A stretch of DNA of 64,000 nucleotides, taken from positions 32,001 through 96,000 of the forward strand of contig JBMFRC010000008.1 of NCBI GenBank assembly GCA_049968235.1, read 5' to 3'. The translations under genes and the position numbers were made by a program. The notes under the pieces are model-generated. The model was given only the letters and a program-made list of their open reading frames with translations, was not told the DNA's origin and did not search any database. This document shows, one piece after another, positions 13,475 to 59,774 of this stretch; the stretch's first letter is position 1, and the number at the start of each line of letters is the position of its first letter. The DNA is from Candidatus Hydrogenedens sp. GTDB lineage: Bacteria; Hydrogenedentota; Hydrogenedentia; Hydrogenedentales; Hydrogenedentaceae.

Positions 13475-14974
13475 ATGAACTCTCAACACACACACTCATC
13501 TACTTGTAGTTGCTGTGGTATTTCCCGCAGATGCTTCCTTGCAACCAGTACTGCAGTAGGATTAACCGTGCCTTTATTATCCTCCGCACAAATGGAATTC
13601 CCAACTGAAAATGAATTAAAACAACCTATAAATCTGGGTGATTTTCGACCTAAACCTTCTGTGCGTATTGTAGGTGTAGTTGTTCGAGAAAAACCTCCTT
13701 ATTGGTTAGGCTGGCCTGGGACCTCGTATGATGTCGAAGGAAAAAGGAAGGAGTTTGAACAGGCTTTTGTCAATTCAGCCAAAAAAGTTGACGTTCAGTT
13801 TGAAATGCTACCCGACCCTATTGAGGATAATACCGCATTGGAAAAATTTACTAATCAAATGTCAACAGAAAAACCCGATGCTATTCTTGTCCATGTTCAG
13901 CATTTAAATGTATGGGGCAGGGTAGATAAAATTCGTTCCGCTAAGATTCCCATGATTGTTTGGGCTCCACTGGGTACCGTGTTTACTACTCAAGTTCACG
14001 AATTTGCCCGTAGAGAGGGGGTATGTTTATTATCCACATTAGATACAAGTTGTCTTGAACAGGCAATGCGAATGGTGCGTGCTAAGAAACAATTCGAGTT
14101 ATCCCGTATACTGGTAGTGCATGGAAATGAACGTAAGGATGAAGTGATTGACCGTTTTGGAACAAAGATTCGACATGTCCCTCGCGAGATGATGGAAAAA
14201 ATGTTTGAGCGTGTTCCTGTAACAGAAGAAGTAAAAGAAGTTGCTGACAGGATGAAAAAGAAAGCACAAAAGGTTGTAGAACCCACCGATGAAGATATGA
14301 TAAATGCAGCTCGAAGTTATGTTGCTGCAAAACATTTATTGCGTATGGAAGATGCCAACGCAATAACAACTGATTGCCTGGGTATGGTTACCATGAAAAC
14401 AGTACCCACTCCTCCGTGTCTTGGTGCATGCATCTTTCAAGATGAAGGTGTAACTTACGGTTGTGAAGCCGATATTTATGGGGCTATGTCATTAATGTTT
14501 ACCAGTTACCTCTTCGATAAACCCGGTTTTATGAACGACCCTGTTCCTGAGACTATAAAAAATGAACTCATAACAGCCCATTGCGTATGTGGAACGAAAC
14601 TCAATGGATTTGATAAACCTTCTGAGCCCTTCATTATCCGTTCCCATTCTGAGTCCGCTCTGGGTGTGTCCTTGCAAGTATTGTGGAAGATTGGACAGCC
14701 TGCAACACTGGTTCGATTACAAAATCCCAATGAACTTATTCTGGATAATGGAACAGTCACCGCAAATATTGATACACCTCCTGCTGGCGGTTGTAGAACG
14801 CATTTATCCCTAAAAATGGATTATATTGAAGAAGCCAAAGACACATTAGGCTTCCACCAGGTTGTATTTTATGGAAATCATCGTAGAGATGTGAAAAACT
14901 TCTGCCAGATGTACGGTATAAAAGTCATTCACTCTCCGGCACAAGCCAATCCTATGTTACCTATGGAAGCATAA
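13475..14974 (+). CDS. Tat-signal exported protein, L-fucose/L-arabinose isomerase-like (tentative)
   Basis: Twin-arginine motif SRRCFLA followed by an h-region ending in an AQ cleavage-like site. The GVTYGCEADIYGAMSLMF block resembles the GFAGEGDWKTAALLRIM catalytic region of AraA/FucI-type isomerases. Confidence 0.35.
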   Translation: MNSQHTHSSTCSCCGISRRCFLATSTAVGLTVPLLSSAQMEFPTENELKQPINLGDFRPKPSVRIVGVVVREKPPYWLGWPGTSYDVEGKRKEFEQAFVNSAKKVDVQFEMLPDPIEDNTALEKFTNQMSTEKPDAILVHVQHLNVWGRVDKIRSAKIPMIVWAPLGTVFTTQVHEFARREGVCLLSTLDTSCLEQAMRMVRAKKQFELSRILVVHGNERKDEVIDRFGTKIRHVPREMMEKMFERVPVTEEVKEVADRMKKKAQKVVEPTDEDMINAARSYVAAKHLLRMEDANAITTDCLGMVTMKTVPTPPCLGACIFQDEGVTYGCEADIYGAMSLMFTSYLFDKPGFMNDPVPETIKNELITAHCVCGTKLNGFDKPSEPFIIRSHSESALGVSLQVLWKIGQPATLVRLQNPNELILDNGTVTANIDTPPAGGCRTHLSLKMDYIEEAKDTLGFHQVVFYGNHRRDVKNFCQMYGIKVIHSPAQANPMLPMEA

Positions 14975-15081
14975 GATTTTTATATCAAAAAATTCTTTTA
15001 TTGGTTTATACCCATAGGGTGTGTTAGACATGTCCGACTTGTCTAAAATGTCTGATAGGTCTGACTCACTGTGGCTATTTA

Positions 15082-16578
15082 TTATGATTTTTTCAAGGGT
15101 TCCCCCAGAAGATAGCGATGAATAGACATTGCAGCCGTTTTTGCCTGTCCCATGGCACTGATTACAGTTGCAGCACCGGAAACAATATCGCCTCCTGCAA
15201 AAATACCAGGGACGGAAGTTTCCATTGTTTCAGGATCAACAACAATAGTGCCATGTTTCGTAGTTTGTAATTCAGGCATAGATTTAGGTATAAGCGGATT
15301 GGGTTGATTCCCTATAGCAATAATAACCGTATCCACCTCCATAATAAATTCGGACCCTTTAATAGGGACAGGTCTGCGTCTCCCCGAAGAATCAGGCTCG
15401 CCTAATTCCATTCGGATACATTCCATCCCAACAACACGATGCCGTTCATCACCAAGGATTCGAACAGGGTTATTTAATAGAAGCATCTTCACTCCTTCTT
15501 CTTCTGCATGATGAATTTCTTCGGCACGGGCAGGCATTTGTTCGCGGGCACGACGGTAAACAATGCTTACATCTCCCCCTAAACGCAAAGCGGTACGTGC
15601 TGAGTCCATAGCCACATTGCCACCGCCGATTACAGCAACTTTATTCCGTTTGATAGGGGGTGTATCGTATTTTGGGAAAAGGTAGGCTTTCATCAGATTA
15701 GAGCGAGTGAGATATTCATTGGCAGAATAGACGCCTACTAAATTCTCACCGGGAATCCCCATAAAGGAAGGGAGACCTGCTCCCGTCCCAATAAATACCG
15801 CATGATAACCTTCTTCATCGAACAATTCCCGAATTGTACAATTTCTTCCAATGACAAAATCCATCACAAATTCGACACCCAATCGTTTGAGATATGCCAC
15901 CTCTGCGCGGACAATTTCTTTAGGAAGCCGGAATTCGGGTATGCCATACATAAGTACTCCACCGGGTTCATGTAAAGCCTCAAACACAGTAACTTCATGC
16001 CCCAATTTGATAAGGTCACCAGCGACCGTAAGCCCTGCGGGACCTGCACCAATTACAGCCACCCGCTTACCTGTTTTTGGGAGAATTTCAGGTAGTTGTA
16101 CTTGTCCACTGGCTCGTTCAAAATCCGCACAAAAACGCTCTAATCTTCCAATTGCTACGGATTCTCCTTTGACACCTAATATACACCCGCTTTCACATTG
16201 TTCTTCTTGTGGGCATACTCGACCACAAACCGCAGGTAACGCATTTTGTAGTTTAATATGCTGAGCCGCCTCGATGAATTTACCATCTTTGATAAGGCGG
16301 ATAAATCCTGGAATATCAATATGGACGGGACAACCTTCAACACAACCCGGCTTTTTGCAATCAAGGCAACGGGACGCTTCCAGTATAGCCAATTCCGGAG
16401 TATAACCGAACGGCACTTCTTCAAAATTATACCGTCGGTCTTCCGGTGCTTGTTCGGGCATAGGTTGTCGTGGAACTTTTCCCTTTTTTTTAGGTTTTGT
16501 TTCCTGTGAAAGGCTATCTTGTGTCTTTATTTCAGAATTTTCGGGTTGTGTCATGGCTTCTAACCTCTTTCCATACAA
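15082..16578 (-). CDS. GltD-like FAD/NAD(P)H oxidoreductase with 4Fe-4S (SudA/NfnB-like, glutamate synthase small-subunit family)
   Basis: 498 aa. Two N-terminal Cys clusters. Dinucleotide-binding motifs VAVIGAGPAGL and VAVIGGGNVAMD. Overlaps the upstream gene by 19 nt. Confidence 0.8.
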   Translation of the reverse strand: MYGKRLEAMTQPENSEIKTQDSLSQETKPKKKGKVPRQPMPEQAPEDRRYNFEEVPFGYTPELAILEASRCLDCKKPGCVEGCPVHIDIPGFIRLIKDGKFIEAAQHIKLQNALPAVCGRVCPQEEQCESGCILGVKGESVAIGRLERFCADFERASGQVQLPEILPKTGKRVAVIGAGPAGLTVAGDLIKLGHEVTVFEALHEPGGVLMYGIPEFRLPKEIVRAEVAYLKRLGVEFVMDFVIGRNCTIRELFDEEGYHAVFIGTGAGLPSFMGIPGENLVGVYSANEYLTRSNLMKAYLFPKYDTPPIKRNKVAVIGGGNVAMDSARTALRLGGDVSIVYRRAREQMPARAEEIHHAEEEGVKMLLLNNPVRILGDERHRVVGMECIRMELGEPDSSGRRRPVPIKGSEFIMEVDTVIIAIGNQPNPLIPKSMPELQTTKHGTIVVDPETMETSVPGIFAGGDIVSGAATVISAMGQAKTAAMSIHRYLLGEPLKKS

Positions 16579-19097
16579 GAACAGTGATGGTAACGATGTT
16601 CTCCCTGAACGGTTTTAGAGGGCATGGTAAAACTTATCGCTTGAATTTCTTCCGCACTATAGGCTTCTCTCCGGTCGCGAACCTCATCCCAATCAACCTG
16701 ATGTGCATCGAAGAAAGGTCCATCAACACATGCAAATTTTGTTTCCCCGTTTATACTGATTCGACAGGCACCACACATACCGGTACCATCTAACATAATA
16801 GGATTTAATGCACAAACCGCTTTTATACCTGTATTGCGGGTTTCTTCTGCAGTAATCATCATCATAAAGGGACATCCCACCGCAACAATCAGGTCTATTT
16901 TCTCACCCGACTGAATTAATCGCTTTAATGCATCAATGGCATGTCCCTTTTCTCCTAATGATGCATCTACAGTTGTTTGAATAAATCGGTCACTGACAGT
17001 AGAGAGTTCTTCTTCGTAATATGCAAGATAATGACTTCGTGCTTCAGAGATTACGATGACTTTATTTCCTTGTTCATGTAATGAACGAGATAAACAGACT
17101 ACTGCACCAATTCCATAACATCCACCTAATATAGCGACTGTTCCATAATGCTTAACTTCAAAAGCAGTACCCAATGGACCTACAACATGAGCAAGACATT
17201 CACCTTCAGATACAGAAATCATTTTCCGACTGGACAAACCCTTTTCTTGTATTACCAATGTAATGGTCCCTTTTTCTTCATCCCAATCACTTAAAGTATA
17301 AGGAATGCGTTCTGAGTTCTCATCTACCATTACGATAACAAATTGTCCAGGTAGTGCCTTTTTCGCAATAGCAGGAGCATAAATAACAAACTCATAGGTA
17401 TTAGGGACTAGTTCCCTACGTGATAAAACCATAAATGGATACGGTGTCTCAGGTAATTTTATTTCTGCTTTTATCGATGTTTTCTCTTCATGGTCTTTGC
17501 CCTCTTCAAAATTCCTCACTGCCACTAAACCGGACACATAATCTTCTACCTTATGTCCTTTGAACCATTCTCGGCGTTCCTTTAAGTTTTGCGATGCGGG
17601 AGGTGCTGTTTGTCGATCAAGATACAATTGGGCTGTATCTAAATCTAATTCACGCGATATTTCTTCAACAGATGTATATTCTTTCCATGCCTCTGAAGAT
17701 AGGGCTCTGGCTATTTGTTGAATAATAATCCATTCAGGTATTGCATCTCCCGGTGGATTGCATGCTTTTATCAAGGGACGCAACCGATTATTTCTATCCA
17801 GCACTGTCCCTGAAACTTCAGCAAAAATGGCGGTCGGATACACCACATCCGCAGATTTTGTCCATTCCGACGGAAAGACATCCAGAGCAATAACCACATC
17901 AAAATTACTCCGAAATTCTTGTGGGATAAATAAACCTGTAGTAATAACCGCTTTAACTTCCGTGGGGATATTTGTAATTCTTGCAAAACCTTTCTTATCC
18001 GGAACAATCTCGAAATAATACGGAGATTGCATTACCTCCTGTGTAAATTTCTTAAATATATGTCTATCTTCCAATGTACTGGATGTATCACAAACAAAGG
18101 CAAATTTCTTACCTGTATAATTCTTTAATAACTCCGCACATCGATGTATGGTTTCTTCAGATGAAACTGGTCGTAATACTTTGTTAATTCGTATTTGTGG
18201 TGAACGAAGGCGATGGGGACTGTTTAAAAATTCAGGGATTGCAAAATGTCCTAAAACACATACAGGTAGATGGTCGTAAACACCCTTAACCATAACCGAT
18301 TTATTATTTACCGCATATACTGCCAGAGCACAGGCTTCATCACAGTAGATGCAGGTGGTTTCAATTTTTGTATCCGGTCGTCCAAACCATTTTGCATATC
18401 GGTCTGATAAAGTCCCCGTAGGACATACATCCACACATGAACCGCAGAAAGTGCAACCCGCTTCATGTAAGTTTCTTCCGAAAGCCTGTCCGATATGGGT
18501 CTGACTGCTACGATGAATAAAATCAATTACGGATTTACCCTGATGTAATTTACAAATGCGAACACATCTTCCGCAAAGAATACATAGATTTAAATCTCGG
18601 TCAATAAAAGGTTCAGAACGCTCTATGGGTTTGTAATGATATTTGGGAGACACCAAAATTTCTGCCAGACCCAAATCTGCGGATAGTTCCCGTACTTCAC
18701 ACACATCTTTGTTGTTACAGGTATGACAACCTGTTGTTGCCCCTACCTTTTCCGATTTTGGTCGATATTTATCACACAATTCGCGTCGCTCACACACAAG
18801 GCAGGCACTGGGATGTTCTAACATCATCAGTCCCAGAATATTTCTGCGTAATAGACGCAAACTTTCCGTTTGCGTATGAATAACCATCCCTTCAGCAATC
18901 GGTGTGGAACAGGATGTAGGATAACCTCGCATACCTTCCACTTCTACAATACATATACGACAGGCACCGAAAGGTGGTAACGCAGGATGCGTGCATAGAT
19001 GGGGAATGGATATTCCATGCCGTAAAGCACATTCTAATATCGTTTCACCTGCTCTACCTTCAAGTGTTTTTCCATCAATAACTACATTCACAATCAA
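16560..19097 (-). CDS. fusion protein: NuoG/HndD-like Fe-S subunit (2Fe-2S + His-ligated 4Fe-4S + 2x4Fe-4S + truncated molybdopterin-type domain) fused to SudB/NfnA/PyrK-like FAD–NAD–2Fe-2S domain
   Basis: 845 aa. Residues 1–80 form a plant-type ferredoxin (CTHP...C..C). HPSACLVCERRELCD matches the NuoG His-Cys cluster. Ferredoxin clusters CILCGRCVRIC and CTFCGSCVDVCPTG. The ETTCIYCDEAC cluster marks a molybdopterin-oxidoreductase-like segment. The C-terminal ~300 aa are PyrK-like (PYPFMVLS...GPLGTAF...CGACRISINGETKFACVDGPFF). Confidence 0.72.
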   Translation of the reverse strand: MIVNVVIDGKTLEGRAGETILECALRHGISIPHLCTHPALPPFGACRICIVEVEGMRGYPTSCSTPIAEGMVIHTQTESLRLLRRNILGLMMLEHPSACLVCERRELCDKYRPKSEKVGATTGCHTCNNKDVCEVRELSADLGLAEILVSPKYHYKPIERSEPFIDRDLNLCILCGRCVRICKLHQGKSVIDFIHRSSQTHIGQAFGRNLHEAGCTFCGSCVDVCPTGTLSDRYAKWFGRPDTKIETTCIYCDEACALAVYAVNNKSVMVKGVYDHLPVCVLGHFAIPEFLNSPHRLRSPQIRINKVLRPVSSEETIHRCAELLKNYTGKKFAFVCDTSSTLEDRHIFKKFTQEVMQSPYYFEIVPDKKGFARITNIPTEVKAVITTGLFIPQEFRSNFDVVIALDVFPSEWTKSADVVYPTAIFAEVSGTVLDRNNRLRPLIKACNPPGDAIPEWIIIQQIARALSSEAWKEYTSVEEISRELDLDTAQLYLDRQTAPPASQNLKERREWFKGHKVEDYVSGLVAVRNFEEGKDHEEKTSIKAEIKLPETPYPFMVLSRRELVPNTYEFVIYAPAIAKKALPGQFVIVMVDENSERIPYTLSDWDEEKGTITLVIQEKGLSSRKMISVSEGECLAHVVGPLGTAFEVKHYGTVAILGGCYGIGAVVCLSRSLHEQGNKVIVISEARSHYLAYYEEELSTVSDRFIQTTVDASLGEKGHAIDALKRLIQSGEKIDLIVAVGCPFMMMITAEETRNTGIKAVCALNPIMLDGTGMCGACRISINGETKFACVDGPFFDAHQVDWDEVRDRREAYSAEEIQAISFTMPSKTVQGEHRYHHCSCMERG

Positions 19098-19121
19098 ATC
19101 ACCTCTTTAATATATAACCCT

Positions 19122-21044
19122 TTAATCCGTTTTCTTCTTTCTTGCCTTTATGGGTTCATAACGAACTCGAGACCCACTACGGCGATATACCGCCGAATAC
19201 ATAGACGGACAAACCCGCAGACATTGACCACAATGTATACATTTTCCCTGGTCAATTACATGGGCCTCTTTCCTTTTACCGGATATCGCTTCTACCGGAC
19301 ATGCCCTGGCACACATGGTACAACCCGTACAACGCTCCGCATCAATGTGATAAGAGATAAGAGAACTACAAACAAAAGCACGGCACTCCTTCGCTTTAAT
19401 ATGCTCTTCATATTCATGTCGGAAATAACGCAGTGTAGATAATACGGGATTGGGTGCGGTCTGTCCTAATCCACATAAGGAGCCTTGTTTAATCGTTTGA
19501 GCCAGTGTTTCCAAACGAATAATATCCGTTAAATCCCCTTTACCAGCACAAATGCGTTCAAGAATACCTAACATAGCACGTGTACCAACACGACAGGGGG
19601 TACATTTACCGCAGGATTCCGCCTGAGTAAATGATAGGAAATAACGGGCAATATCCACCATACAGTTGTCTTCATCTAAAACAATCATTCCGCCCGAACC
19701 CATGATACTACCTGCTTTTGTCAGGGATTCATAATCAACGGGCAGGTCTAACATTTCTGACGGAATACATCCTCCGGATGGACCTCCGGTCTGGACTGCT
19801 TTCACTTCTTTATCATTTAAAATACCTCCACCAACATCAAATATTACTTTTCGCAGAGGTATGCCCAAAGGGATTTCAACCAATCCTGTTCGTTTAATTT
19901 TTCCTGCTAGAGCAAAGGTCTTTGTCCCCTTGCTGTTTTCATTTCCATACTGCACATACCAATCTGCACCTCGATGGAGAATTAAAGGCAGATTTGCTAA
20001 AGTTTCGACATTCTGAATAATTGTGGGCTTACCCCATAATCCGCTAATAGCCGGAAAAGGGGGACGGGGACGGGGCATACCCCGGTTCCCTTCAATAGAT
20101 GCAATCAGAGCGGTTTCTTCTCCACAGACAAAAGCTCCTGCCCCTTTCTTAACCGTAATGTCAAAAGAAAAACCACTCCCCAATATATTTTCCCCTAATA
20201 AACCATGTTCATACATCTGCTGAATGGCAATTTCTAATCGCCGTATAGCTAGAGGATATTCCGCACGACAATACACATATCCATGCCGAGCACCGATAGT
20301 ATATCCTGCTATCAACATTCCTTCCAATACCGAATGCGGGTCTCCTTCCAGGACCGAACGATTCATAAATGCACCGGGGTCCCCTTCATCCGCATTACAA
20401 ATAAGATACTTCCCTTCGGCGGATGTTTCTCGGGCAAAAGACCATTTCTTCCATGTGGGGAATCCCGCACCTCCACGACCTCGCAAACCTGATTTTTTTA
20501 CTTCCTCCAACACTGCATCTGCACCAATATTTAACGCCTTTAAAAAACCACGATAACCATTCTGGGCTAAATAATGGTAGAAATTTTCAGGGTCAATCAA
20601 TCCGCAATTGCGAAGTATATTGCGGACTTGATGCGACAACATCGGATGCCTTGTAATCGGAGGCAATCCTCGAAACTCATCCATACTCATTACTCCAATG
20701 AGTTTTTCTTCCCATACCCCTTCTTCTAAAAAAATCCGATTTACAAATTCCTCGACATTTTCAGGCTTTATAGGACCATAACATATAGGAATCCCTCCCG
20801 GAGGTTGAACCATAATAATAGGTTCTAACACACAGGGACCCATACAGCCCACTTCAATAAACATTGCATATTTTTTATTTTGTATCAAAAGTTTTTTAAT
20901 AATCTCTTCGGTTTCAAGGGCACCTGCGGCTCGACCACAGGTTGCTGAACCTACATAGACCACAGGAATCGTATTACTTTCTATCTTTCCCCATTCTTCC
21001 TGTGCTCGTTCATATAAAATCTCCATAGTATCATTTGCTATCAT
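19122..21044 (-). CDS. NuoF/HoxF-like NAD(H)-binding FMN Fe-S subunit with N-terminal thioredoxin-like and C-terminal 2x[4Fe-4S] ferredoxin domains
   Basis: 640 aa. FMN-site motif GRGGAGFPTWKKW. Cluster ESCGKCTPCRVG. C-terminal CTGCTMCARACP and CIHCGQCLRVCP. Confidence 0.85.
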   Translation of the reverse strand: MIANDTMEILYERAQEEWGKIESNTIPVVYVGSATCGRAAGALETEEIIKKLLIQNKKYAMFIEVGCMGPCVLEPIIMVQPPGGIPICYGPIKPENVEEFVNRIFLEEGVWEEKLIGVMSMDEFRGLPPITRHPMLSHQVRNILRNCGLIDPENFYHYLAQNGYRGFLKALNIGADAVLEEVKKSGLRGRGGAGFPTWKKWSFARETSAEGKYLICNADEGDPGAFMNRSVLEGDPHSVLEGMLIAGYTIGARHGYVYCRAEYPLAIRRLEIAIQQMYEHGLLGENILGSGFSFDITVKKGAGAFVCGEETALIASIEGNRGMPRPRPPFPAISGLWGKPTIIQNVETLANLPLILHRGADWYVQYGNENSKGTKTFALAGKIKRTGLVEIPLGIPLRKVIFDVGGGILNDKEVKAVQTGGPSGGCIPSEMLDLPVDYESLTKAGSIMGSGGMIVLDEDNCMVDIARYFLSFTQAESCGKCTPCRVGTRAMLGILERICAGKGDLTDIIRLETLAQTIKQGSLCGLGQTAPNPVLSTLRYFRHEYEEHIKAKECRAFVCSSLISYHIDAERCTGCTMCARACPVEAISGKRKEAHVIDQGKCIHCGQCLRVCPSMYSAVYRRSGSRVRYEPIKARKKKTD

Positions 21045-21595
21045 TGCTCAACACCTGCTTTATTATCTTCTTTTTGACGATATTCTTTAATTACTTCACG
21101 AACTTTTTCCTGTGTCATCTGGGCATAAACCTTGCCATTAACTGCCATCACAGGTGCTAACGCACAACAACCGACACATGCAACCCGTTCTAATGTAAAC
21201 AAACCATCTGCTGTAGTATGTCCCGGTTCTATATTTAATTCCTCACGCAACGCTTCTAACACCACAGAAGAACCACGAACATGGCATGCCGTACCCTGAC
21301 ATATCTGAATAACATATTTACCCGGCGGTGTAAATTTGAACTGGGTATAAAACGATGCTACTCCATAGATTTCCGAAGCAGATACTCCTAAATATTCGGA
21401 CATTGCATCAACCGCAGGAGATGAAATATAACCATAATGCTCTTGTACCTCCTGAAGCAATGGAATAATACTACTACGCCGGGCAGGGTATTTTTGAAAT
21501 AATTGTTGCAAACCAAAAACCAATTCATTCTTTGATGAACTCAACGATAAATTCCTTCTCGTTGTATAGCGAAAGGCATAACTAAATTGAAGCAA
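21041..21595 (-). CDS. NuoE/HoxE-like 2Fe-2S thioredoxin-fold subunit
   Basis: 184 aa. Motifs CQGTACHVRG and CVGCCALAPVMAVNG. 4-nt overlap with the NuoF-like gene. Confidence 0.8.
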   Translation of the reverse strand: MLQFSYAFRYTTRRNLSLSSSKNELVFGLQQLFQKYPARRSSIIPLLQEVQEHYGYISSPAVDAMSEYLGVSASEIYGVASFYTQFKFTPPGKYVIQICQGTACHVRGSSVVLEALREELNIEPGHTTADGLFTLERVACVGCCALAPVMAVNGKVYAQMTQEKVREVIKEYRQKEDNKAGVEQ

Positions 21596-21688
21596 AAACG
21601 GAGCAAAGAATTATACCATGACCAAAATAAAAAAGTAAAACGATCTACTTTTACTGTTCTATTCGTAGGAGAAATAATATATATTTAT

Positions 21689-21744
21689 AATGGAATAAGA
21701 GAAAAAACTATGAGAGAATGGAATAAGAGAAAAAACTATGAGAG
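21689..21744. repeat. perfect 28-bp tandem direct repeat x2 (AATGGAATAAGAGAAAAAACTATGAGAG)
   Basis: Read directly: copies at 21689–21716 and 21717–21744. Located in the intergenic region upstream of the NuoE-like operon. Confidence 0.85.
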
Positions 21745-21780
21745 TTCTTTGTAAGAAAAAGAAAATTATTAGAATTTAGG

Positions 21781-22452
21781 CTATACCTCTGGTATATCCG
21801 GAGGATTCTGGGGTGGAAGTTCTTGTTTGAGAAAAAAAGGTAATAGGAATATACCTACCAAAAATCCACCGATATGTGCCCACCAGGCGACACCTGCAAC
21901 ATCTTCGGAACTTGCCATAACAACCAGTCCATTGAGAAGTTGTAAGATGAACCAGATACCTCCAAACAGGAATGCAGGAATTTCTACAAAATAGGGATAA
22001 ATGATAATCGGGATAATGCATAAAATTTGTGCTCCGGGATACAACACCAGATAGGCTCCGAGGATTCCCGATATAGCACCAGAAGCACCTACACAAGGCA
22101 CTTCTGAACTTGTTTGAGTTATAGCGTGAATTGTCCCCGCAAAAATACCACAAAGAATGTAGAAAAGTAAAAAACGAAGATGTCCTAAACGGTCTTCAAT
22201 ATTATCTCCAAAAATCCACAAAGCCCACATATTTGAAATAAGATGTAATAAACCACCATGGAGAAACTGATGTGTAATAAGGGAAATTAATTGAATATGG
22301 GCAGGAACAATACCGAAAATCCGAAAAATCAATTCTACTCGCTTTTCTGGCAAATCAAAATATTGAAAAAATATTATGGTATTAAAGATTATTATCAACA
22401 CAACAACAACGGGAAATCCTCGTCGTGGATTGACATCTCTCAATGGGAACAT
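21781..22452 (-). CDS. rhomboid family intramembrane serine protease
   Basis: 223 aa, multi-TM. Catalytic GASGAISG (GxSG) and AHIGGFLVG histidine motifs. Confidence 0.85.
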   Translation of the reverse strand: MFPLRDVNPRRGFPVVVVLIIIFNTIIFFQYFDLPEKRVELIFRIFGIVPAHIQLISLITHQFLHGGLLHLISNMWALWIFGDNIEDRLGHLRFLLFYILCGIFAGTIHAITQTSSEVPCVGASGAISGILGAYLVLYPGAQILCIIPIIIYPYFVEIPAFLFGGIWFILQLLNGLVVMASSEDVAGVAWWAHIGGFLVGIFLLPFFLKQELPPQNPPDIPEV

Positions 22453-41460: not shown

Positions 41461-41709
41461 AATAGATGTAAAGTGGTAAAGTAAACAGTTTAATATTGAA
41501 AACAAAAGGGTGTCCGAAGGCATCGAAAGGAGGTGACCCGGTAAATGTCAGTTCGGACCATATGTAGTAATAAAAGTTGAATATAAATGCATAGGTATGT
41601 TGTAGGGACGCAACATAAAACCGAAGCATATTCGTTGTTTTGATTAAGGGACAATCAAAACAACACAAGGCAAGGACGCAACAAACATTAACTCATGGAG
41701 GAATTTGTT

Positions 41710-42525
41710 ATGGGTCTTAGAATTAACACCAATGTACCGTCATTGAATGCGGCACGCGTTCTACGGCGTTCAACGCTGGATTTGAACAAAACATTGGAAC
41801 GGCTTTCAAGTGGGTTGAGAATCAACCGTGCAGCCGATGATGCAGCAGGTCTTGCTATTGCAGAAGCGTTTCGTTCAATTGTTCGTGGTTCAAATGTAGC
41901 TCAACGGAATGCACAGGACGGTATTAGTCTGGTACAGACCGCAGAAGGTGCATTAAGCGAAACCACAAATATTTTGCAACGAATTCGCGAATTGGCAGTA
42001 CAAGCAGCAAACGGCACTCAGAGCGATACCAACCGCGCTGCAATTAACACAGAAGTTCAACAGTTATTACAACAAATCGACAAGATTGCCACCGACACCG
42101 AATTTAATGGAATCTATATATTGAGCGTCTCTCAAACAGTAAATTTACAGGTAGGTGCTTTCAGCGGGCAAGTAATGGCAATAACTGTTGGTGGGGCAAA
42201 AACGAATGACCTTTCTGTTGATATTGTAAATGTATCTACAATGGCAGGTGCGGTATCTGCATTGTCCTTAGTAGATAATGCTCTAAAGAGTGTAAATACA
42301 CTCCGCGCTACTCTGGGTGCTTATCAGAATCGTCTTGAATTTACAATTAACACACTGGCGATTCAGGAAGAAAATTCGGCTGCTTCGGAGAGTGCTATTC
42401 GTGATGCGGACATAGCACAAGAGACAATACGGTTTACCCGGAACCAGATATTGGTAAATGCAGGTACTTCCGTACTTGCCCAATCGAATGTCGTTCCACA
42501 AACTGCATTGCAGCTGTTAAGATAA
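41710..42525 (+). CDS. flagellin (short, ~271 aa), paralog 1
   Basis: N-terminus MGLRINTN...LSSGLRINRAADDAAGLAIAE. C-terminus ...VLAQSNVVPQTALQLLR. The likely true start is the internal Met at 41710, with a GGAGG Shine-Dalgarno 8 nt upstream; the ORF track begins at 41695. Confidence 0.92.
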   Translation: MGLRINTNVPSLNAARVLRRSTLDLNKTLERLSSGLRINRAADDAAGLAIAEAFRSIVRGSNVAQRNAQDGISLVQTAEGALSETTNILQRIRELAVQAANGTQSDTNRAAINTEVQQLLQQIDKIATDTEFNGIYILSVSQTVNLQVGAFSGQVMAITVGGAKTNDLSVDIVNVSTMAGAVSALSLVDNALKSVNTLRATLGAYQNRLEFTINTLAIQEENSAASESAIRDADIAQETIRFTRNQILVNAGTSVLAQSNVVPQTALQLLR

Positions 42526-42615
42526 TAAAACTTTAACAGTAAAAGGTGTGTTCAAAATGAAACAATTAAGGGCAGGGAAAGCCCAAAGAAATAAGTAACT
42601 CAAGGAGGAATAACT

Positions 42616-43431
42616 ATGGGACTTCGTATTAACACAAATGTATCAGCGTTAAACGCTGCCCGTGTGTTACGCCGTAGCACACTGGATTTAAACAAATCCT
42701 TAGAGCAATTGTCCAGTGGTCTGAGAATTAACCGTGCTGCGGATGATGCAGCAGGACTGGCTATTGCAGAGAGTTTCCGCGCTCAAGTTCGTGGTACACA
42801 GGTGGCTCAGCGAAATGTTCAGGATGGTATTAGTCTCGTTCAAACGGCAGAAGGAGCCTTGAGCGAAACGACAAACATCCTGCAACGAATTCGCGAATTA
42901 GCCGTGCAGGCAGCCAATGGAACCCAAAGTGATACCAACCGTGCCGCAATCCAGACCGAAGTAGGTGAATTGATTAGTCAAATTGATAAGATTGCTACGG
43001 ATACAGAGTTTAATGGTATCAAAGTTTTAACAGGGGCACAATCAGTTGTCATGCAAGCAGGTTATTTACAAGGGCAAACGCTAAGTTTAACAATTAGCGG
43101 TGCTACGGCAGCGATACTGAGTGTAAACAATCTGGCGGTATCCACTCGGTCTCTTGCAGAATCCGCCATTACACTGGTTGACAATGCTTTGAGATCTGTA
43201 AATACCTTGCGGGCGACATTGGGTGCTTATCAGAACCGTATGGAGTTCACAATTAATACCTTAGCCATTCAGCAAGAGAACTCCTCAGCCTCTGAAAGTG
43301 CTATTCGCGATGCGGATATTGCTCAGGTAACCATTCGGTTCACCCGTAACCAGATACTTGTAAACGCAGGAACTTCCGTATTAGCTCAAGCCAATGTCGT
43401 CCCACAAACAGCATTACAATTATTAAGATAA
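42616..43431 (+). CDS. flagellin, paralog 2
   Basis: Same conserved D0/D1 termini as paralog 1, with a divergent central ~60 aa. GGAGG Shine-Dalgarno upstream. Confidence 0.92.
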   Translation: MGLRINTNVSALNAARVLRRSTLDLNKSLEQLSSGLRINRAADDAAGLAIAESFRAQVRGTQVAQRNVQDGISLVQTAEGALSETTNILQRIRELAVQAANGTQSDTNRAAIQTEVGELISQIDKIATDTEFNGIKVLTGAQSVVMQAGYLQGQTLSLTISGATAAILSVNNLAVSTRSLAESAITLVDNALRSVNTLRATLGAYQNRMEFTINTLAIQQENSSASESAIRDADIAQVTIRFTRNQILVNAGTSVLAQANVVPQTALQLLR

Positions 43432-43524
43432 TTGATGGGAAACATAAGGTTTGATTAAAATTGAATTACTCTTGGACAAAAAACTCATGGATGGGATAAC
43501 AATAACTCATGGAGGAATTTAGTT

Positions 43525-44340
43525 ATGGGTTTAAGAATTAACACAAATATACCGGCAATAAATGCAAGCCGGGTACTCCGCAGAACAACAGCGGATTTGA
43601 ACAAAACGTTGGAACAATTATCCAGCGGTTTGCGTATCAATCGTGCTGCAGATGATGCGGCGGGCCTTGCTATCGCTGAAGCATTTCGTTCCCAGGTATT
43701 GGGAACAGGTGTAGCCCAGCGGAATGCCCAAGACGGTATCAGTCTTGTTCAAACAGCAGAAGGTGCTTTGAGCGAAACGACAAATATTCTGCAACGGATG
43801 CGTGAACTGGCTGTTCAAGCGGCAAATGGCACACAAAGTGATAGTAATCGTTCGGCAATACAAGGTGAAATCAATCAACTGATTCAACAAATTAATGCAA
43901 TTGCTACCGATACAGAATTCAACGGTATCACAGTTTTAAATACAACCAGTGCTATTCAAATTCAAGCAGGGGTATATTCCGGACAAACCCTTGCTTTGAG
44001 TATGGCTTCTGCAACAGCCGCTGCACTGGGTGTCAGTCTTGTCAGTGTTGTTTCTGCTGTGTTAGCCGCTTCCGCAATCAGTGTAATTGATGCGGCATTA
44101 GGCACTGTAAATACCCTGCGAGCAAGATTGGGTGCTTATCAGAATCGTCTGGAATTCACAATAAATACCCTCGCTATCCAGCAGGAAAATGCCTCCGCAT
44201 CAGAAAGCGCTATTCGCGATGCAGATATTGCTCAGGTGACGATACGCTTTACCCGAAACCAAATTTTGCTGAACGCAGGGACATCTGTATTGGCACAAGC
44301 TAATATTGTTCCCCAGACAGCATTGCAGTTGTTGAGGTAA
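43525..44340 (+). CDS. flagellin, paralog 3
   Basis: Same architecture as paralogs 1–2. Central region rich in Ala/Ser/Val. Confidence 0.92.
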   Translation: MGLRINTNIPAINASRVLRRTTADLNKTLEQLSSGLRINRAADDAAGLAIAEAFRSQVLGTGVAQRNAQDGISLVQTAEGALSETTNILQRMRELAVQAANGTQSDSNRSAIQGEINQLIQQINAIATDTEFNGITVLNTTSAIQIQAGVYSGQTLALSMASATAAALGVSLVSVVSAVLAASAISVIDAALGTVNTLRARLGAYQNRLEFTINTLAIQQENASASESAIRDADIAQVTIRFTRNQILLNAGTSVLAQANIVPQTALQLLR

Positions 44341-44350
44341 AGTTACTCTC

Positions 44351-44376
44351 GAGGGCAGGGTATATCCCCTGCCCTC
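44351..44376 (+). terminator. GC-rich hairpin (10-bp perfect stem GAGGGCAGGG/CCCTGCCCTC, 6-nt loop) after flagellin 3
   Basis: Read directly. Begins 10 nt after the flagellin-3 stop codon. The downstream U-tract is weak. Confidence 0.5.
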
Positions 44377-44501
44377 TGTCTGGAACATATATTATCAGTA
44401 TTAACCTTTTCAGGGATGGCGTGAAAGACCTGAAAGCATGTCTGATAATTAAAAGAAAGGGAATTCTGGATAAGTGTTAAACACTCAAGGAGGTAAGAAC
44501 T

Positions 44502-45317
44502 ATGGGACTTCGAATAAACACAAATATCCCGGCTTTAAATACCGCACGGGTTCTACGGAAGTCTACTCTTGACCTTAATAAAAGTCTGGAAAGGTTAAGT
44601 AGTGGTCTGCGTATTAACCGCGCTGCGGATGATGCAGCAGGGCTTGCCATCGCAGAAAGTTTCCGGGCTCAGGTTCGCGGGACAAATGTGGCTCAACGAA
44701 ATGCACAGGACGGTATCAGTCTGGTTCAAACAGCAGAAGGTGCATTGAGCGAAACAACAAATATCCTGCAACGGATTCGCGAACTTGCAGTTCAGGCAGC
44801 GAATGGAACACTAAGTAGCACAAATCGAAGTGCATTGAACACAGAAGCACAGGAGTTAATTTCGCAAATCGATAAGATTGCTAATGATACTGAGTTCAAT
44901 AGTTTACGGATATTAAGTGCTACCAACAGTGTTGTTCTTCAAGCAGGTCCTAATCAAGGACAAACACTGACTGTTTCCATTGATGCAGCAAATGCCAGTG
45001 TGTTAGGTGTAAGTGGGATTTCTCTGGCTTTTGCAGATTCTGCTGCTGCGGCTATCACAAAAGTTGACGATGCATTAAGAAGTGTAAATACTCTCCGAAG
45101 TAAATTAGGTGCTTATCAAAATCGGTTAGAGTTTACTATTAACACTCTTGCCATTCAAGAAGAAAATGCAGCATCTTCAGAAAGTGCTATCCGCGATGCA
45201 GATATTGCCCAGGAAACAATCCGGTTTACTCGCAATCAAATTCTGGTGAATGCGGGAACATCTGTGCTTGCACAAGCCAATATCGTTCCCCAGACAGCAT
45301 TAGCATTATTGAGATAA
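44502..45317 (+). CDS. flagellin, paralog 4
   Basis: Conserved termini, ending ...TALALLR. Most divergent central region of the four. Own GGAGG Shine-Dalgarno. Confidence 0.92.
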   Translation: MGLRINTNIPALNTARVLRKSTLDLNKSLERLSSGLRINRAADDAAGLAIAESFRAQVRGTNVAQRNAQDGISLVQTAEGALSETTNILQRIRELAVQAANGTLSSTNRSALNTEAQELISQIDKIANDTEFNSLRILSATNSVVLQAGPNQGQTLTVSIDAANASVLGVSGISLAFADSAAAAITKVDDALRSVNTLRSKLGAYQNRLEFTINTLAIQEENAASSESAIRDADIAQETIRFTRNQILVNAGTSVLAQANIVPQTALALLR

Positions 45318-48021: not shown

Positions 48022-51000
48022 TTGGGGTTAAGAGTCCTTTACCTTTCCGATGCAATAAAAAATCCGGATTTTTCAGCACCCCTACACGATGCGGAATTTA
48101 AAGATTACTGGGCAAGGGCTATCTTATCCGGTAATTATACACCTCCACGGAATGAAGGTAATCCATTTATGGAAGGTCATCCCCTTCCCAATCCACCGGG
48201 CTATCCCTTATTCCTTGCATTGATTTATTGGTTAACAGAAGGTAGTTATCTCGCCGTGCGATGGGTTCAAATTTGTATTGGACTTCTTAATATATTCCTT
48301 GTGTATCTATTAGGCAAAAACCTCTTTGATTATAAAGCCGGGCTTTTTTCTGCATTAGGAGTGGCTACCTACTGGGCGTTTGTCCACTATGATATGGAAC
48401 TTAATCAGGTTACCATCTTTATAACCATAAATTTATTATGTTTCAATTTACTTCTACAGGCATATAAAAAAAATAAATTAGGACTACTTTCCTTAGCAGG
48501 TCTTATATTCGGGATGGGGGCATGGTTCCGTGGCGAAGTGTTTATTCTCATTTTCCCGCTAACAATATTTGTTATGTTCCTTTTTTTTCATCCGGGACGG
48601 CTAAAAACTGTTTTTTACACAGGATTGTTATTCTTAGTTTCTGCACTACTATCTGTGCTTCCATTATCTTTATACAATTACTATCTTTGTGGTTCGTTTA
48701 CTTCAGGCTCACATAATAGCGAATGTAGTATCTCCATCGCTTTTCACCCGGACACACCCGAATACGGTTCATATACACCGGAGATGCTTCGATGGCTCAA
48801 TAAAACGCCTGAGGATACGGTGGAAATATTTGATCTGGACGGAATGACCCTTGGCTTAGGAAAACAATTAGGATTGGAACGAAGAGCAACTTATAAGGAA
48901 TGGAAAAATTATCTTATCTCCGGTGCTATACATAATATAAAAACATATCCATGGCTCAATCTTAAAAAATGCTTAAAACGATTTTTATGGACTTTTTCCC
49001 CACAAGAATTGGATGAAAATAAAGTGATTTATTATGAGCGAGAAGTTTCAACAGTACTAAAATACTTACCTCGTTTTCCTCTCGCAATGAGTTTATTCAC
49101 TTTAAGCCTTATTTTACTCGTTATCTCCTTGTCATCAAAAGGGGCTATACCGATAAAAATAAGCACTTGCTCCTGGAAATTCATATTCGTCTTGTTATTT
49201 TTTGTTGCAACAAATATCAGCATTTTTTCGCTTTTGATAGCAGGAAGTCGATATCGTATATCCCTTCTCCCCTATTTTTTTATTTTTGGTGGTATTGTTT
49301 TTTCGTCATTATGGGAAACGGTCTCGAACAAAAGATGGAATTGGGCTACTTTGATTATTTTTGGTTTCCTTATTCTTTTTTCGTTAGCCCATGTTCCATT
49401 TTTCGATTACCAGCCCAACCGCTCCCGATGGTTAGATGAACGGCGAAAATGTTATCAGAGAATTGGAAAGATAGCGGAAGGAGTACAATTCTTTGAAAAA
49501 TGGTTAGAAAAACATTCAGACGCAGATGCTCATTATCACGCGGGGGTCCTTTGTTATGAACTCAATGAACTAACAAAGGCAGAAGAACATTTTTATACTT
49601 GTCTCAAATTATCACCTGACCATCCATCCGCTCCTTATAATTTAGGTTTGATTTTTGCAAAAAGAGGTGATTGGGCAAAAGCAGGAAAATATTTTGAGGA
49701 AGCCGTAAAAAGAAATCCGAGCAAAGCGGATATGTGGTTCGCATTAGGTTGGGCAACTGAAAACAGTGGTGATTTATCTACTGCATTAGAGCATTACACA
49801 CATGCATTGAATATAAATCCACACCATACTCAGGCATTAAATCATAGTGCCGTAATTATGTTTCAAAAAGGGGAAGGAAAAACTGCAAAACAACATCTTG
49901 AACAGGCAATTCGCATTGACCCTAACTATGTAGATGCACGATTTAATTTGGGTCAAATTCTCTTAGCGGAACGGAAACCTGCAGATGCCTTGAAGCAATT
50001 CATGACTGTTAAAGGGAAGTATCAACCGGAACATGAATTATTAAAATGTATAGGATTATGTTATGTCCAGATGCTTGATTATAAGGAGGCACTAAATTAT
50101 CTCTTAAAAGCAAAGGGAATGAACCCCGAGAAATGGGATGCAGAAGATAGTCTTGCTGTCTGTTACGCAGGATTAGGCATGCGAGAAGAATGTATACGAA
50201 CAATTGAAATATTAGAGGATAAATTATCTAATTCAATACAGGTTTTTAATTTGGGGCATGCATGGGAATTACTGGGAGAATGGGATAAAGCAGAAACTTA
50301 TTATAAAACTGTTATTGAAAAAGATAAAAACAATGCAGATACATACGCAGGATTGGGAAATATTTCTTTAATTCGTGGGGACAAAAACTCCGCTTACATG
50401 TATTTCAAACAGGCATTGGAAATTAACCCACATCAAGTTGGGGCATGGTTCAATTTAATTTTATCATGGGTAGAAAATCGAGAATGGGAAAAAGCAAAAA
50501 CACAGTTAATAGAGTTTATAAATTATTATCCCGAACATATAGAGGCATACTATAATTTAGGGATTGTAAATGAAGCCTTAGGCAATATTGAGGATGCAAA
50601 AAAGTCGTATGAAAAAGTGTTAGAAAAGAAATCAGACCATTCAGGGGCTTTATTCTCCCGCGCTACTATTGCTTTATCGGAAATGGATTTAGAAAATGCA
50701 AAAGAACTATTTGAGAAACTTAAGCCTATTGAACCGTTTAAATCTTTATATCATTTAGGAATTGTTTATTCATTAAAGGAGGATTGGAACAATGCACATG
50801 ATTGTTTCTTAAATTCTTTTTTTATAAATCCTCAACCCTTTTATAATGATTATATATATGCGTTTAATATCGGTAGAAGTTATGACCATCTTGACTGCTT
50901 ATATGAGGCGGAGAAATTCTACCGTATTTCTTTTGAATTGAATAATAATTTCGTAGATGCGAAAGATGCCCTCTCTTTTCTTCTTTTTCAACAAGGAAAT

Positions 51001-57269: not shown

Positions 57270-57405
57270 ACCTAAGTTTTCGTTATCGCTTTATAGCCAA
57301 ATCTTTTTATACCTCAAATTATTTATAATAACATATCATAATAAGGATTGAATATTTGATGAACGCATAATAGATGCTTTTTAATTAAACCTATGGAGTA
57401 CGCCG

Positions 57406-58623: not shown

Positions 58624-59774
58624 ATAAAACAACAATACAAAAAAATATAAGCAAGAAAAAAATTGTTCTATTTACCTTTTTACCCCTCGCTATCTTACTT
58701 TTTAGCCTGGAACTGATAGCACGAATCATAGAGATATGGCTTCCTCCTATGGTGACAGATATCGGTTTAGGTTTTACAGAAGATTCCCGATTATTTATCC
58801 CTGACCCTTATGACAGCCGATATTTGATAACACATCCCAATAAGACTGTTGCTTTTCAAAATCAACGATTTCTAAAAAACAAACCATCAGGAACTTTACG
58901 CATATTTTTTCTCGGAGGTTCCTCTGTAAATTATGTTAACTACGAATTGCCAAATTTATCCGAACGATTGGAAGAAACACTTAAACCAAGATACAAAGAA
59001 GTCGAGATTATTAATTGTGGGGGACTTTCGTACGGGACACATCGACTTGTATTGATTGCTCGTGAGATTGTGAACTATAACCCTGACCTTGTAATGATAT
59101 ATTCCGGACATAATGAATTTGAAGAAATTGAACAATTACATTTAGCACGAGTGCAAATAACGAAATTACAACGGGTTTTGTTCTCCTCCGCAATGATGCG
59201 ATTTATTCGCGACCGAATCGCAACCTACCAGATATCCCAATTGGAAAAAGAGCATAATCGCAGAATGTTGGCTCAATCATTACCCGATGCAGGTAAAGGA
59301 TGGAATCATATTTTCACACCCCAGGAAATTGCAGAACGAATGGAAAAATACAAAAATAATCTCAACGAAATTATACAGTTATGTAAAGAGAAAAATATAA
59401 AAGTCGTTATTGCAACCGTTCCTTCAAACTATATAAAGCCCAATTTAATAGGGAAAACTGCAGAAGAATATGAACAAGTGTTGCAGTTAATTAAAGAAGA
59501 GAAATATAAAAAAGCGTATGAATTAGGTAGGAAAATTATTCGTGAAACTTCGCCACGACATCAATCTTCCGACCTTGAAAATAACATTGTGCGAGAACTC
59601 GCAGAGAAACATCATATTCCTCTGGCTGATGTTTTATCTGCAGTAGAGCGGGCAGAACCCCACCACATTCCCGGTGAAACTTTGTTTAATGACCATTGTC
59701 ACTTAAATCCAGAAGGCAATAGTATTATGATACATACATTTGAGGAAAAAATCTTACAGGTATTGGCAGAATAA
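58605..59774 (+). CDS. membrane-anchored SGNH/GDSL-family hydrolase (paralog P4)
   Basis: N-terminal TM helix. Block I (RIFFLGGSSVNY), II (NCGGLSYG), III (SGHNEFEE) and V (NDHCHLNPEGN). Overlaps P3 by 19 nt. Confidence 0.6.
   Translation: MANQKMNKTTIQKNISKKKIVLFTFLPLAILLFSLELIARIIEIWLPPMVTDIGLGFTEDSRLFIPDPYDSRYLITHPNKTVAFQNQRFLKNKPSGTLRIFFLGGSSVNYVNYELPNLSERLEETLKPRYKEVEIINCGGLSYGTHRLVLIAREIVNYNPDLVMIYSGHNEFEEIEQLHLARVQITKLQRVLFSSAMMRFIRDRIATYQISQLEKEHNRRMLAQSLPDAGKGWNHIFTPQEIAERMEKYKNNLNEIIQLCKEKNIKVVIATVPSNYIKPNLIGKTAEEYEQVLQLIKEEKYKKAYELGRKIIRETSPRHQSSDLENNIVRELAEKHHIPLADVLSAVERAEPHHIPGETLFNDHCHLNPEGNSIMIHTFEEKILQVLAE

Follow-up and report, generated by a model that had tools for sequence, protein, structure and literature searches.

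Within a 64-kb stretch of a Candidatus Hydrogenedens sp. genome (contig JBMFRC010000008.1, positions 32,001 to 96,000; hereafter the window), an operon of four genes appears to join a complete NfnSL transhydrogenase unit to the core of a Bfu-type electron-bifurcating enzyme. The genes, bfuC, bfuB, a bfuA-nfnS fusion and nfnL, are tightly packed on the minus strand, and the region holds no other sizeable open reading frame (ORF) (Table 1). We propose that their products assemble into one soluble multi-flavin, multi-Fe-S complex of the Bfu family, in which NfnSL would act as the third-substrate module and connect NADP(H), NAD(H) and ferredoxin (Fd). Judging from sequence, we consider this modestly probable, and the activity would most likely be that of an NADP(H)/NAD(H)/ferredoxin oxidoreductase. 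An initial annotation of the same DNA had placed four genes at 15082-21595, assigned domains to each of them, including a SudB-like C-terminus on the 845-aa protein, and read the whole as two bifurcation-capable modules joined together. Genes and domains are borne out by Pfam and by the cutoffs of curated hidden Markov models (HMMs), and the junction by the motifs of the Bfu core and the complete ligand set of NfnSL.

The first two genes encode the bifurcating core. BfuC matches PF01257 (187 bits) and passes the cutoff of the NuoE equivalog NF005722 (162 bits vs 141), and it keeps the [2Fe-2S] ligand residues Cys99, Cys104, Cys140 and Cys144. BfuB, whose sequence is identical to NCBI MGC8738422.1, matches PF01512 (161 bits), PF10589 (115 bits) and, at residues 566-614, Fer4 families, while its match to the SLBB domain is weak (E = 7e-4). 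Its layout runs from an N-terminal Cys-bearing thioredoxin-like domain through the flavin mononucleotide (FMN)/NAD(H) site, the B1 [4Fe-4S] cluster and B2 to a C-terminal two-[4Fe-4S] ferredoxin-binding domain. Over its full length it is 62-65% identical to four structurally solved bifurcating BfuBs, and residues 30-613 score 759 bits against 7t2r_B (NiFe-HydABCSL), 750 against 9bov_B (Csac NfnABC), 746 against 8oh5_B (Sporomusa ovata Stn) and 710 against 9n5u_B (Thermococcus sibiricus).

Similarity of this kind is complemented by the residues that distinguish bifurcating enzymes. The B2 ligands (three Cys and one His) occur in all 1558 Bfu sequences and are missing from non-bifurcating homologues (PMC9304861); together with the FMN/NADH motifs they split Bfu enzymes from the non-bifurcating NuoF, FdsB and HoxF (PMC9304861, Supplementary Figs 9 and 10). 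In the BfuB of the window the four B2 ligands are Cys461 (in DNCMVD) and His548, Cys554 and Cys559 (in HIKAKECRAFVC), which align with C438, H525, C531 and C536 of the A. mobile BfuB, and the FMN/NADH motifs are present as GDPGAF and GAGAFVCGEETAL. The features by which the family has been delimited (PMC9304861) are all found here, namely the BfuB domain set, the B2 ligands, a NuoE-like BfuC, and a BfuA with 2Fe-2S and 4Fe-4S ferredoxin-type domains. By its ligands and motifs, the BfuB-BfuC pair is an intact bifurcating core, ferredoxin-binding domain included.

The third gene encodes a protein of 845 residues that begins as a NuoG-like chain of Fe-S clusters. Ligands are predicted for a [2Fe-2S] site (Cys35, 46, 49 and 63), a His-ligated [4Fe-4S] cluster (His95, Cys99, 102 and 108) and two further [4Fe-4S] clusters (Cys172, 175, 178, 182, 215, 218, 221 and 225). 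The predicted ligand columns of residues 1-240 are invariant in 25 aligned homologues, and residues 3-319 align with the FdsA chain of R. capsulatus (6tg9_A) at 195 bits. There is also an extra invariant motif, Cys124-His125-x-Cys127-x5-Cys133 (TTGCHTCNNKxxC, residues 121-133, window 18699-18737), which repeats the HxxxCxxCx5C cluster motif; it is missing from R. capsulatus FdsA and common in a large NuoG-like subfamily. We considered this motif as a signature of the NfnS-fused family and rejected it, since the same duplication is found in 131 NuoG-like proteins without NfnS.

Downstream of the Fe-S domains, what is left of the molybdopterin-like fold offers no place for catalysis. PF00384 is matched solely at profile positions 285-352 of 353, PF04879 is matched weakly, and PF01568 was not found in a Pfam scan of the protein. 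The AlphaFold2 (AF2) model has a mean predicted local distance difference test (pLDDT) score of 70, with values of about 90 for residues 240-500 and below 50 for the Fe-S domains. Its fold matches in the PDB, searched with Foldseek, are solely NuoG/75-kDa chains, alpha chains of formate dehydrogenase (FDH) and NfnS chains, with no hydrogenase fold among them; for residues 241-525 they are NuoG and FDH alpha chains only. Just before the linker to NfnS stands a conserved RRxxFRGHxxxxxVxxL (residues 508-524, window 17526-17576), with His515 and Leu524 invariant, which may be a docking element.

A hydrogenase or FDH hidden in the 845-aa protein was weighed as a candidate; the motif scans, the cutoffs of the curated HMMs and the fold search all spoke against it, and it was rejected. 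Regular-expression scans of all four proteins, with loosened patterns too, found no match to the H-cluster motifs TSCxP, MPCxxK and ExMxCxGGC, and a scan of the same proteins for the FDH Cys/Sec-His and RGQxNxQG motifs found none. NF040763 and TIGR02512 match the N-terminal Fe-S domains only, far under their cutoffs, and the FDH alpha model TIGR01591 gives 98 bits against a cutoff of 666. Nor was a hydrogenase or FDH gene seen among 30 ORFs of the window scanned against Pfam, which included most ORFs of at least 200 aa. The initial annotation had both described the molybdopterin-like domain as truncated and denied the operon a hydrogenase or FDH catalytic site, and on both counts it was right. 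Relatives with a longer pterin-like domain could in principle be real FDHs, the window form being a degenerate Fdh-Bfu. This candidate was also rejected: the long forms score 165-386 bits on TIGR01591 (cutoff 666), carry no catalytic motifs and score about equally on the NuoG model, and they are therefore NuoG-like conduits too. BfuA, read from its ligands and domains, is a NuoG-like wire without a catalytic site.

The C-terminal part of the same protein is a full NfnS domain. Residues 556-825 match NF004862 ('sulfide/dihydroorotate dehydrogenase-like') at 331 bits against a cutoff of 220, and PF10418 is found at the C-terminus. The domain scores 257 bits against 5jca_S and 203 bits against 4ylf_A, shares about 50% identity with P. 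furiosus NfnI-S, and superimposes on both chains with Foldseek target template modeling (TM) scores of 0.83-0.84. The [2Fe-2S] ligands, Asp770, Cys775, Cys778 and Cys790, lie in LDGTGMCGACR...FACVDGP. This Asp/Cys3 site, the flavin adenine dinucleotide (FAD) motif and the Rossmann glycines are kept in 25 diverse homologues.

Its partner is encoded by the fourth gene. The nfnL product scores 624 bits on TIGR01316 (cutoff 472) and resembles true NfnL chains (581 bits against 4ylf_B, the T. maritima NfnB; 530 against 5jca_L, the P. furiosus NfnI-L; 512 against 5vj7_A) more than the NfnA chains of NfnABC (364 and 352 bits). Two [4Fe-4S] clusters are predicted, with ligands Cys71, 74, 79, 83, 118, 122, 128 and 132, and the NADP(H) site reads GGGNVAMD, with an NADP-type GxGxxA. 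Glu147 (IGRLERF), the ligand of the FAD-proximal [4Fe-4S] cluster, aligns with P. furiosus E126, and the flavin-adjacent Arg217 lies within GIPEFRLPK; this Glu and Arg are kept in 18/18 Bfu-linked and 40/40 stand-alone NfnL sequences. Glu versus Lys at the FAD-proximal cluster has been treated as a mark of the NfnSL versus the NfnABC family (PMC9503767, PMC12018979). NfnL keeps, as far as its residues tell, every feature of a bifurcating NfnL: the two [4Fe-4S] clusters, the Glu ligand, the flavin Arg and the NADP-type motif. By the same token, the operon holds a bona fide, complete NfnSL unit.

The idea of coupling a Bfu core to an NADP(H) module is not new, because NfnABC/Stn has been characterized. 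S. ovata, T. sibiricus and Caldicellulosiruptor saccharolyticus have each yielded this enzyme, also called Nfn-Bfu, in purified form, and its structures (PDB 8oh5, 9bov and 9n5u) were solved by cryo-electron microscopy (PMC7483475, PMC10482914, PMC9304861, PMC11829005, PMC12018979). Its existence contradicts the assumption in the initial annotation that NuoEFG-like trimers partner solely with hydrogenase or FDH subunits. It also cuts down the novelty claimed there for a NuoEFG-Nfn composition, which has a characterized precedent, although the precedent differs in architecture. Common to both are the BfuBC core (710-750 bits for BfuB), a BfuA without pterin chemistry and a GltD/NfnL-type FAD module; both are soluble, lack a hydrogenase or FDH site and presumably use the same three redox pools. 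They also differ. In NfnABC/Stn the NfnL-like domain is inserted in BfuA after the [2Fe-2S] domain (residues 97-503 of 9n5u_A, or 92-506 when given for 9n5u_A and 9bov_A together) and interrupts the Fe-S wire, whereas in the window NfnL is a separate gene, the wire is uninterrupted, and residues 1-550 of BfuA hold no domain of this kind. NfnABC/Stn consists of three subunits without NfnS, whereas this operon encodes four subunits with a full NfnS on the C-terminus of BfuA. At the FAD-proximal cluster (A7), the Lys of T. sibiricus (IRQLKRF) and C. saccharolyticus (IAELKRF) is replaced here by Glu (PMC12018979). On these sequence features the operon is not a member of the characterized NfnABC/Stn type.

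Seen from the other side, the operon resembles ordinary NfnSL (NfnAB, NfnI or SudAB; T. maritima 4ylf, P. furiosus 5jca) in having both subunits in S-then-L order and all cofactor ligands, including the diagnostic Asp of S, the Glu of L and the flavin-adjacent Arg. Unlike ordinary NfnSL, it encodes no free S-L heterodimer: NfnS forms the C-terminal end of a NuoG-like protein, the genes of the S-L pair stand together with those of a BfuBC core, and the port of NfnL that is open to ferredoxin in the free enzyme may here be taken by BfuA. Like other Bfu complexes, it uses a catalytically empty BfuA to wire extra subunits to the BfuBC core (its BfuB is nearest to NiFe-HydB), but here the accessory module is itself an NADP(H)-using flavin-based bifurcating enzyme rather than a hydrogenase, tungsten enzyme or FDH.

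Two centers capable of bifurcation in one Bfu complex have been proposed before, for the Bam-Bfu benzoyl-CoA reductase (BamBCDEFGHI) and for the 'sub-type I' hydrogenases of Hydrogenedentota (PMC11406978). The second center is HdrA in Bam-Bfu and a GltD-like domain on BfuB in the sub-type I enzymes, whereas here it is the NfnSL pair on BfuA; this operon also lacks both the tungsten catalytic site of Bam-Bfu and the H-cluster of the sub-type I enzymes. SfrAB of Geobacter sulfurreducens, a NuoG/Fdh-like SfrA with a GltD-like NADPH flavoprotein SfrB, resembles BfuA plus NfnL, but it is without NfnS and without a NuoE/NuoF core, and we set it apart by its description (PMC7483475). Twelve Bfu types have been named (Codh, FdhFeFe, F420, Fdh, FeFe, Mbh, Nfn-ABC, NiFe, Nuo, Por, Rub and Wor), with 17 clades left unassigned, and a BfuABC-plus-NfnSL type is not among the twelve (PMC9304861 Supplementary Table 1). 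Full-text searches of open-access papers and bioRxiv returned no description of such an operon, and a 2024 study of Hydrogenedentota covered only Bfu clusters with a [FeFe]-hydrogenase BfuA. What is new is the architecture, a complete NfnSL on a Bfu core, and not the category. The system is best filed as a Type-3-like 'NfnSL-Bfu', undescribed as far as we found.

The fusion of BfuA and NfnS is not peculiar to this genome. At least 119 other full-length clusters at 90% identity share the architecture (812-866 aa, 53-92% identical, 97-100% query coverage), all of them with both PF13510 and PF10418, and those with a named source come from metagenome-assembled genomes (MAGs) of Hydrogenedentes, Planctomycetota and Dehalococcoidia. 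Recurrence on this scale excludes chance as its origin. At 50% clustering the fused form with a truncated pterin domain makes up three clusters (P0106, P0121 and P0122), and the long form, with a full pterin-like fold and NfnS (1023-1080 aa), at least three more. Among GTDB genomes and metagenome contigs the order BfuC-BfuB-BfuA-NfnS-NfnL recurs, with BfuA and NfnS fused or split, and the flanks are different at every locus. The cassette is found in at least seven phylum-level lineages: Hydrogenedentota, Planctomycetota, Dehalococcoidia, Desulfobacterota, Aminicenantes, Eubacteriales and Thermoplasmatota. The loci are those of Hydrogenedentes (L001, L083), Phycisphaerales (L002), Desulfobacteraceae and Desulfobulbaceae (L004, L006), Aminicenantes (L007, L018), Eubacteriales (L008, L017), a Thermoplasmatota archaeon (L005) and further MAGs (L003, L010, L082, L084). 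BfuA and NfnS are separate genes at L002, L004, L005 and L007.

The contig scan, which used patterns from the NfnS part, gave 80 loci, about 14 of them with Bfu genes; because of the choice of patterns most of the 80 are ordinary nfnSL loci, and these supplied the stand-alone sequences used as a control in the tree of NfnL. In that neighbor-joining tree, built from 58 sequences, most Bfu-linked NfnL members group in two clades, separate from the bulk of the stand-alone ones. From the fusion, the synteny and the co-phylogeny together, we argue that the cassette encodes one dedicated heteromeric enzyme.

Some members of the cassette are elaborated further. In Hydrogenedentes ADurb.Bin170 (L001:2747-5980) and in the Phycisphaerales locus (L002:2772-5906), BfuB has 1045-1078 aa and ends in a GltD/DPD_II plus FAD domain, which replaces the two-[4Fe-4S] ferredoxin-binding domain; a BfuB of this type has been described for hydrogenases (PMC11406978). 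Complexes built from these predicted proteins would have four nucleotide-binding flavin sites. In a Desulfobacteraceae MAG (L004:142-1200) BfuC carries an N-terminal response-regulator receiver domain (PF00072 plus PF01257), and the gene order is C-A-S-L-B. At L082:8069-9993 a second BfuC-like gene directly follows nfnL, and after it begins a gene cut by the contig end that is possibly a second BfuB.

The predicted complex has three pyridine-nucleotide sites: the FMN of BfuB, the FAD of NfnS and the FAD of NfnL, the last of NADP type. We hypothesize that NADPH would be oxidized at the NfnL FAD, from where the high-potential electron would travel through the [2Fe-2S] cluster and FAD of NfnS to NAD+, and the low-potential electron would cross the two [4Fe-4S] clusters of NfnL into the BfuA wire instead of reaching free ferredoxin. 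The flavin/Fe-S site of BfuBC would then pass the electrons of the wire to NAD+ and ferredoxin; in the reverse direction, NADPH would be made from NADH and a little reduced ferredoxin. In glutamate synthase and dihydropyrimidine dehydrogenase, electrons leave the GltD-type module for the partner protein through its two [4Fe-4S] clusters. They have the same role in NfnABC (PMC12018979), and it is because of these analogies that we judge transfer from the distal cluster of NfnL to BfuA most likely.

If the NfnL flavin still bifurcates, as the Glu ligand and the conserved NfnS suggest, the outcome would be a cascade. The NfnL flavin would split the electrons of NADPH between NAD+ (via NfnS) and the BfuA wire, and BfuBC would split those of the wire again between NAD+ and ferredoxin, with a net reaction of roughly 4 NADPH + 3 NAD+ + 2 Fd_ox ⇌ 4 NADP+ + 3 NADH + 2 Fd_red. 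By simple arithmetic from in vivo potentials of -280 mV for NADH, -380 mV for NADPH and -500 mV for ferredoxin (PMC9304861), the forward direction could drive an acceptor to about -680 mV, and the reverse direction could hold NADPH/NADP+ near -335 mV at half the usual ferredoxin cost. This tandem scheme is thermodynamically coherent but unproven, and we put it forward tentatively, as unlikely in itself.

Several considerations weigh against our proposal of a single NfnSL-linked complex wired in this way. All members are known as sequences alone. The predicted template modeling (pTM) score of the AF2 monomer is 0.48, so that its inter-domain geometry, wiring included, is uninformative. Since the C-terminus of BfuA is repeatedly fused to the N-terminus of NfnS, BfuA could lie beside the NfnS FAD instead of the NfnL clusters. 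No enzyme has yet been demonstrated to run two bifurcations in a cascade, and the only one for which this has been proposed is Bam-Bfu (PMC9304861). Finally, the presence of two NAD(H) sites in one complex is left without an explanation.

A possible, though on balance doubtful, alternative is that the net chemistry is that of an ordinary Nfn (2 NADPH + NAD+ + 2 Fd_ox ⇌ 2 NADP+ + NADH + 2 Fd_red). NfnSL would then be a non-bifurcating entry for NADP(H) to the BfuA wire, and NfnS an NAD(H)-binding appendage that is redundant or has a structural or regulatory role. No reading follows more simply from the characterized relative: in NfnABC/Stn an NfnL-like FAD does work as a plain entrance to the Bfu core (PMC12018979, PMC7483475). 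However, the Asp/Cys3 site, FAD motif and Rossmann glycines of NfnS are fully kept across the 25 homologues, and one would not expect purifying selection to maintain a high-potential branch that is of no use; in addition, NfnL has the Glu and not the Lys that marks the non-bifurcating NfnA.

The position of the fusion raises another arrangement, in which the BfuA wire contacts the NfnS FAD on the high-potential branch, the distal cluster of NfnL stays the docking site of free ferredoxin, and the Bfu core replaces or supplements NADH. In its favor, the FAD barrel with which NfnS begins is repeatedly fused or adjacent to the C-terminus of BfuA. The S-FAD of this branch lies at about -280 mV in P. 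furiosus NfnI. In the bifurcating direction, then, the NfnS branch would be too positive to feed the mid-potential path of the Bfu core, and in the confurcating direction the arrangement would merely waste reduced ferredoxin. Moreover, the linker of 30-45 residues between the two domains is variable and disordered (poorly conserved and of variable length in alignment columns 525-570 of the 25 homologues, with pLDDT below 50 at residues 534-543), so that the fusion does not fix the geometry of BfuA and NfnS. We regard this wiring as improbable.

It is yet more improbable, in our estimate, that the third substrate is not NADP(H) at all, and that polysulfide or elemental sulfur, Fe(III), oxygen or another acceptor is reduced at the NfnL flavin, as reported for SudAB ('sulfide dehydrogenase'), NsoABC and SfrAB. 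Homologues were indeed first described by such activities (PMC7483475), but enzymes linked to NADP(H) are now considered to catalyze them as side reactions (PMC9304861, PMC7483475). The NADP-type GxGxxA of NfnL and its score above the TIGR01316 cutoff also argue for NADP(H), and there are no sulfur- or metal-related genes nearby in the window. Two independent, co-transcribed enzymes, a BfuABC-like NADH:ferredoxin module and an ordinary NfnSL, might be imagined from the lineages in which BfuA and NfnS are separate genes (L002, L004, L005 and L007), but this is very improbable and essentially refuted by the fusion into one polypeptide here and in the at least 119 other clusters, by a BfuA that alone has no catalytic site, and by the placement of most Bfu-linked NfnL sequences in clades of their own.

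NfnSL and NfnABC have been presented as unrelated alternative links between NADPH, NADH and ferredoxin, with Thermococcales carrying one or the other (PMC12018979). An enzyme that joins a complete NfnSL to a Bfu core and is conserved in many phyla is at odds with this either/or picture, and it matters for the bioenergetics of anaerobes because it unites two bifurcation mechanisms regarded as alternatives. NfnSL-Bfu offers a natural test bed for whether FAD-type and FMN/Fe-S-type bifurcation sites can work in series and with what stoichiometry and ferredoxin potential, and it bears on how the mid-potential wire of Bfu enzymes takes electrons from different modules. Were the tandem scheme true, this would be the first enzyme to chain FAD-type and Bfu-type bifurcation with only pyridine nucleotides and ferredoxin; it could push ferredoxin or flavodoxin far below -500 mV, or yield NADPH with the ferredoxin saving given above. 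In MAGs of Hydrogenedentota, Planctomycetota, Dehalococcoidia and others, the genes of the cassette currently go by the labels 'NuoF', 'NuoG', 'sulfide/dihydroorotate dehydrogenase-like' and 'glutamate synthase'. As a result, an enzyme that is probably central to redox balance is overlooked when the metabolism of these abundant uncultured anaerobes is reconstructed.

Table 1. Genes, protein segments and upstream signals of the NfnSL-Bfu operon (window coordinates)
Feature	Position	Strand	Description
bfuC	21041..21595	-	NuoE/HydC-like thioredoxin-fold [2Fe-2S] subunit; ORF of 184 aa from TTG at 21595
bfuB	19122..21044	-	NuoF/HydB-like subunit with FMN and NAD(H) site, 640 aa
bfuA-nfnS fusion	16560..19097	-	845 aa, NuoG-like part and NfnS domain
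BfuA residues 1-240	18378..19097	-	NuoG-like Fe-S wire; PF13510 (78 bits), PF22117, PF10588, Fer4_Nqo3, Fer4_7
BfuA residues 241-525	17523..18377	-	pterin-enzyme-type [4Fe-4S] site (Cys249, 252, 256, 280), then vestigial molybdopterin-like fold
Linker, about residues 526-553	17439..17522	-	BfuA-NfnS tether, indel-rich, variable
NfnS domain, residues 554-845 and stop codon	16560..17438	-	NfnS/SudB/PyrK-like; FAD barrel (ERIPYT), Rossmann motif (GGCYGIG), [2Fe-2S] site
nfnL	15082..16578	-	NfnL/NfnB/SudA/GltD-type subunit; ORF of 498 aa
Promoter-like site	21610..21639	-	sigma-70 type, upstream of bfuC: TTTACT, 18-nt spacer, TATAAT, extended -10 TG
Tandem duplication	21691..21742	-	exact, 26 bp, two copies of ctcatagttttttctcttattccatt, read from the sequence; just upstream of the promoter-like site

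The initial annotation had called the four genes overlap-coupled, which is true in part. The bfuC and bfuB genes overlap by 4 nt and the packing is tight throughout, but bfuB and bfuA are separated by a 24-nt gap, and the bfuA/nfnL junction is either a 19-nt overlap or a 5-nt gap, depending on the choice of the nfnL start codon. The ATG at 16554, which has a good ribosome-binding site and gives the 5-nt gap, is probably the start of nfnL. For bfuC the start is probably the TTG at 21544, giving 167 aa; we favor it because of the promoter-like site at 21639-21610 and an AGAAGGA ribosome-binding site, and its homologues are 163-166 aa long. The promoter-like site matches the consensus at 10/12 positions, the best in the region, and is only suggestive because equally good matches are not enriched relative to shuffled sequence. 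The 26-bp duplication may be an operator or other regulator-binding site.

The neighbors of the operon are unrelated to it in function (a glycogen phosphorylase, a rhomboid, a nucleotidyl-transferase-family enzyme and an amidase), and a 499-aa ORF adjoining it on the opposite strand (window 13475-14974, +) has no Pfam match. The G+C content over the operon region (window 14001-22000) is 0.40-0.43, against 0.36-0.37 at 22-26 kb. Strong conservation or horizontal transfer would each fit the raised value, and Bfu clusters have been reported to be mobile (PMC11406978). Farther away, four ORFs of 271-276 aa stand in tandem in window 41695-45317 (+); Pfam identifies the first and second as flagellins (Flagellin_N and Flagellin_C), and the third and fourth are like them in length and spacing. 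Window 48022-52014 encodes a 1330-aa tetratricopeptide repeat (TPR)/PMT_2 protein, and in window 51998-59774 four GDSL-lipase-like genes are interspersed with large TPR proteins.

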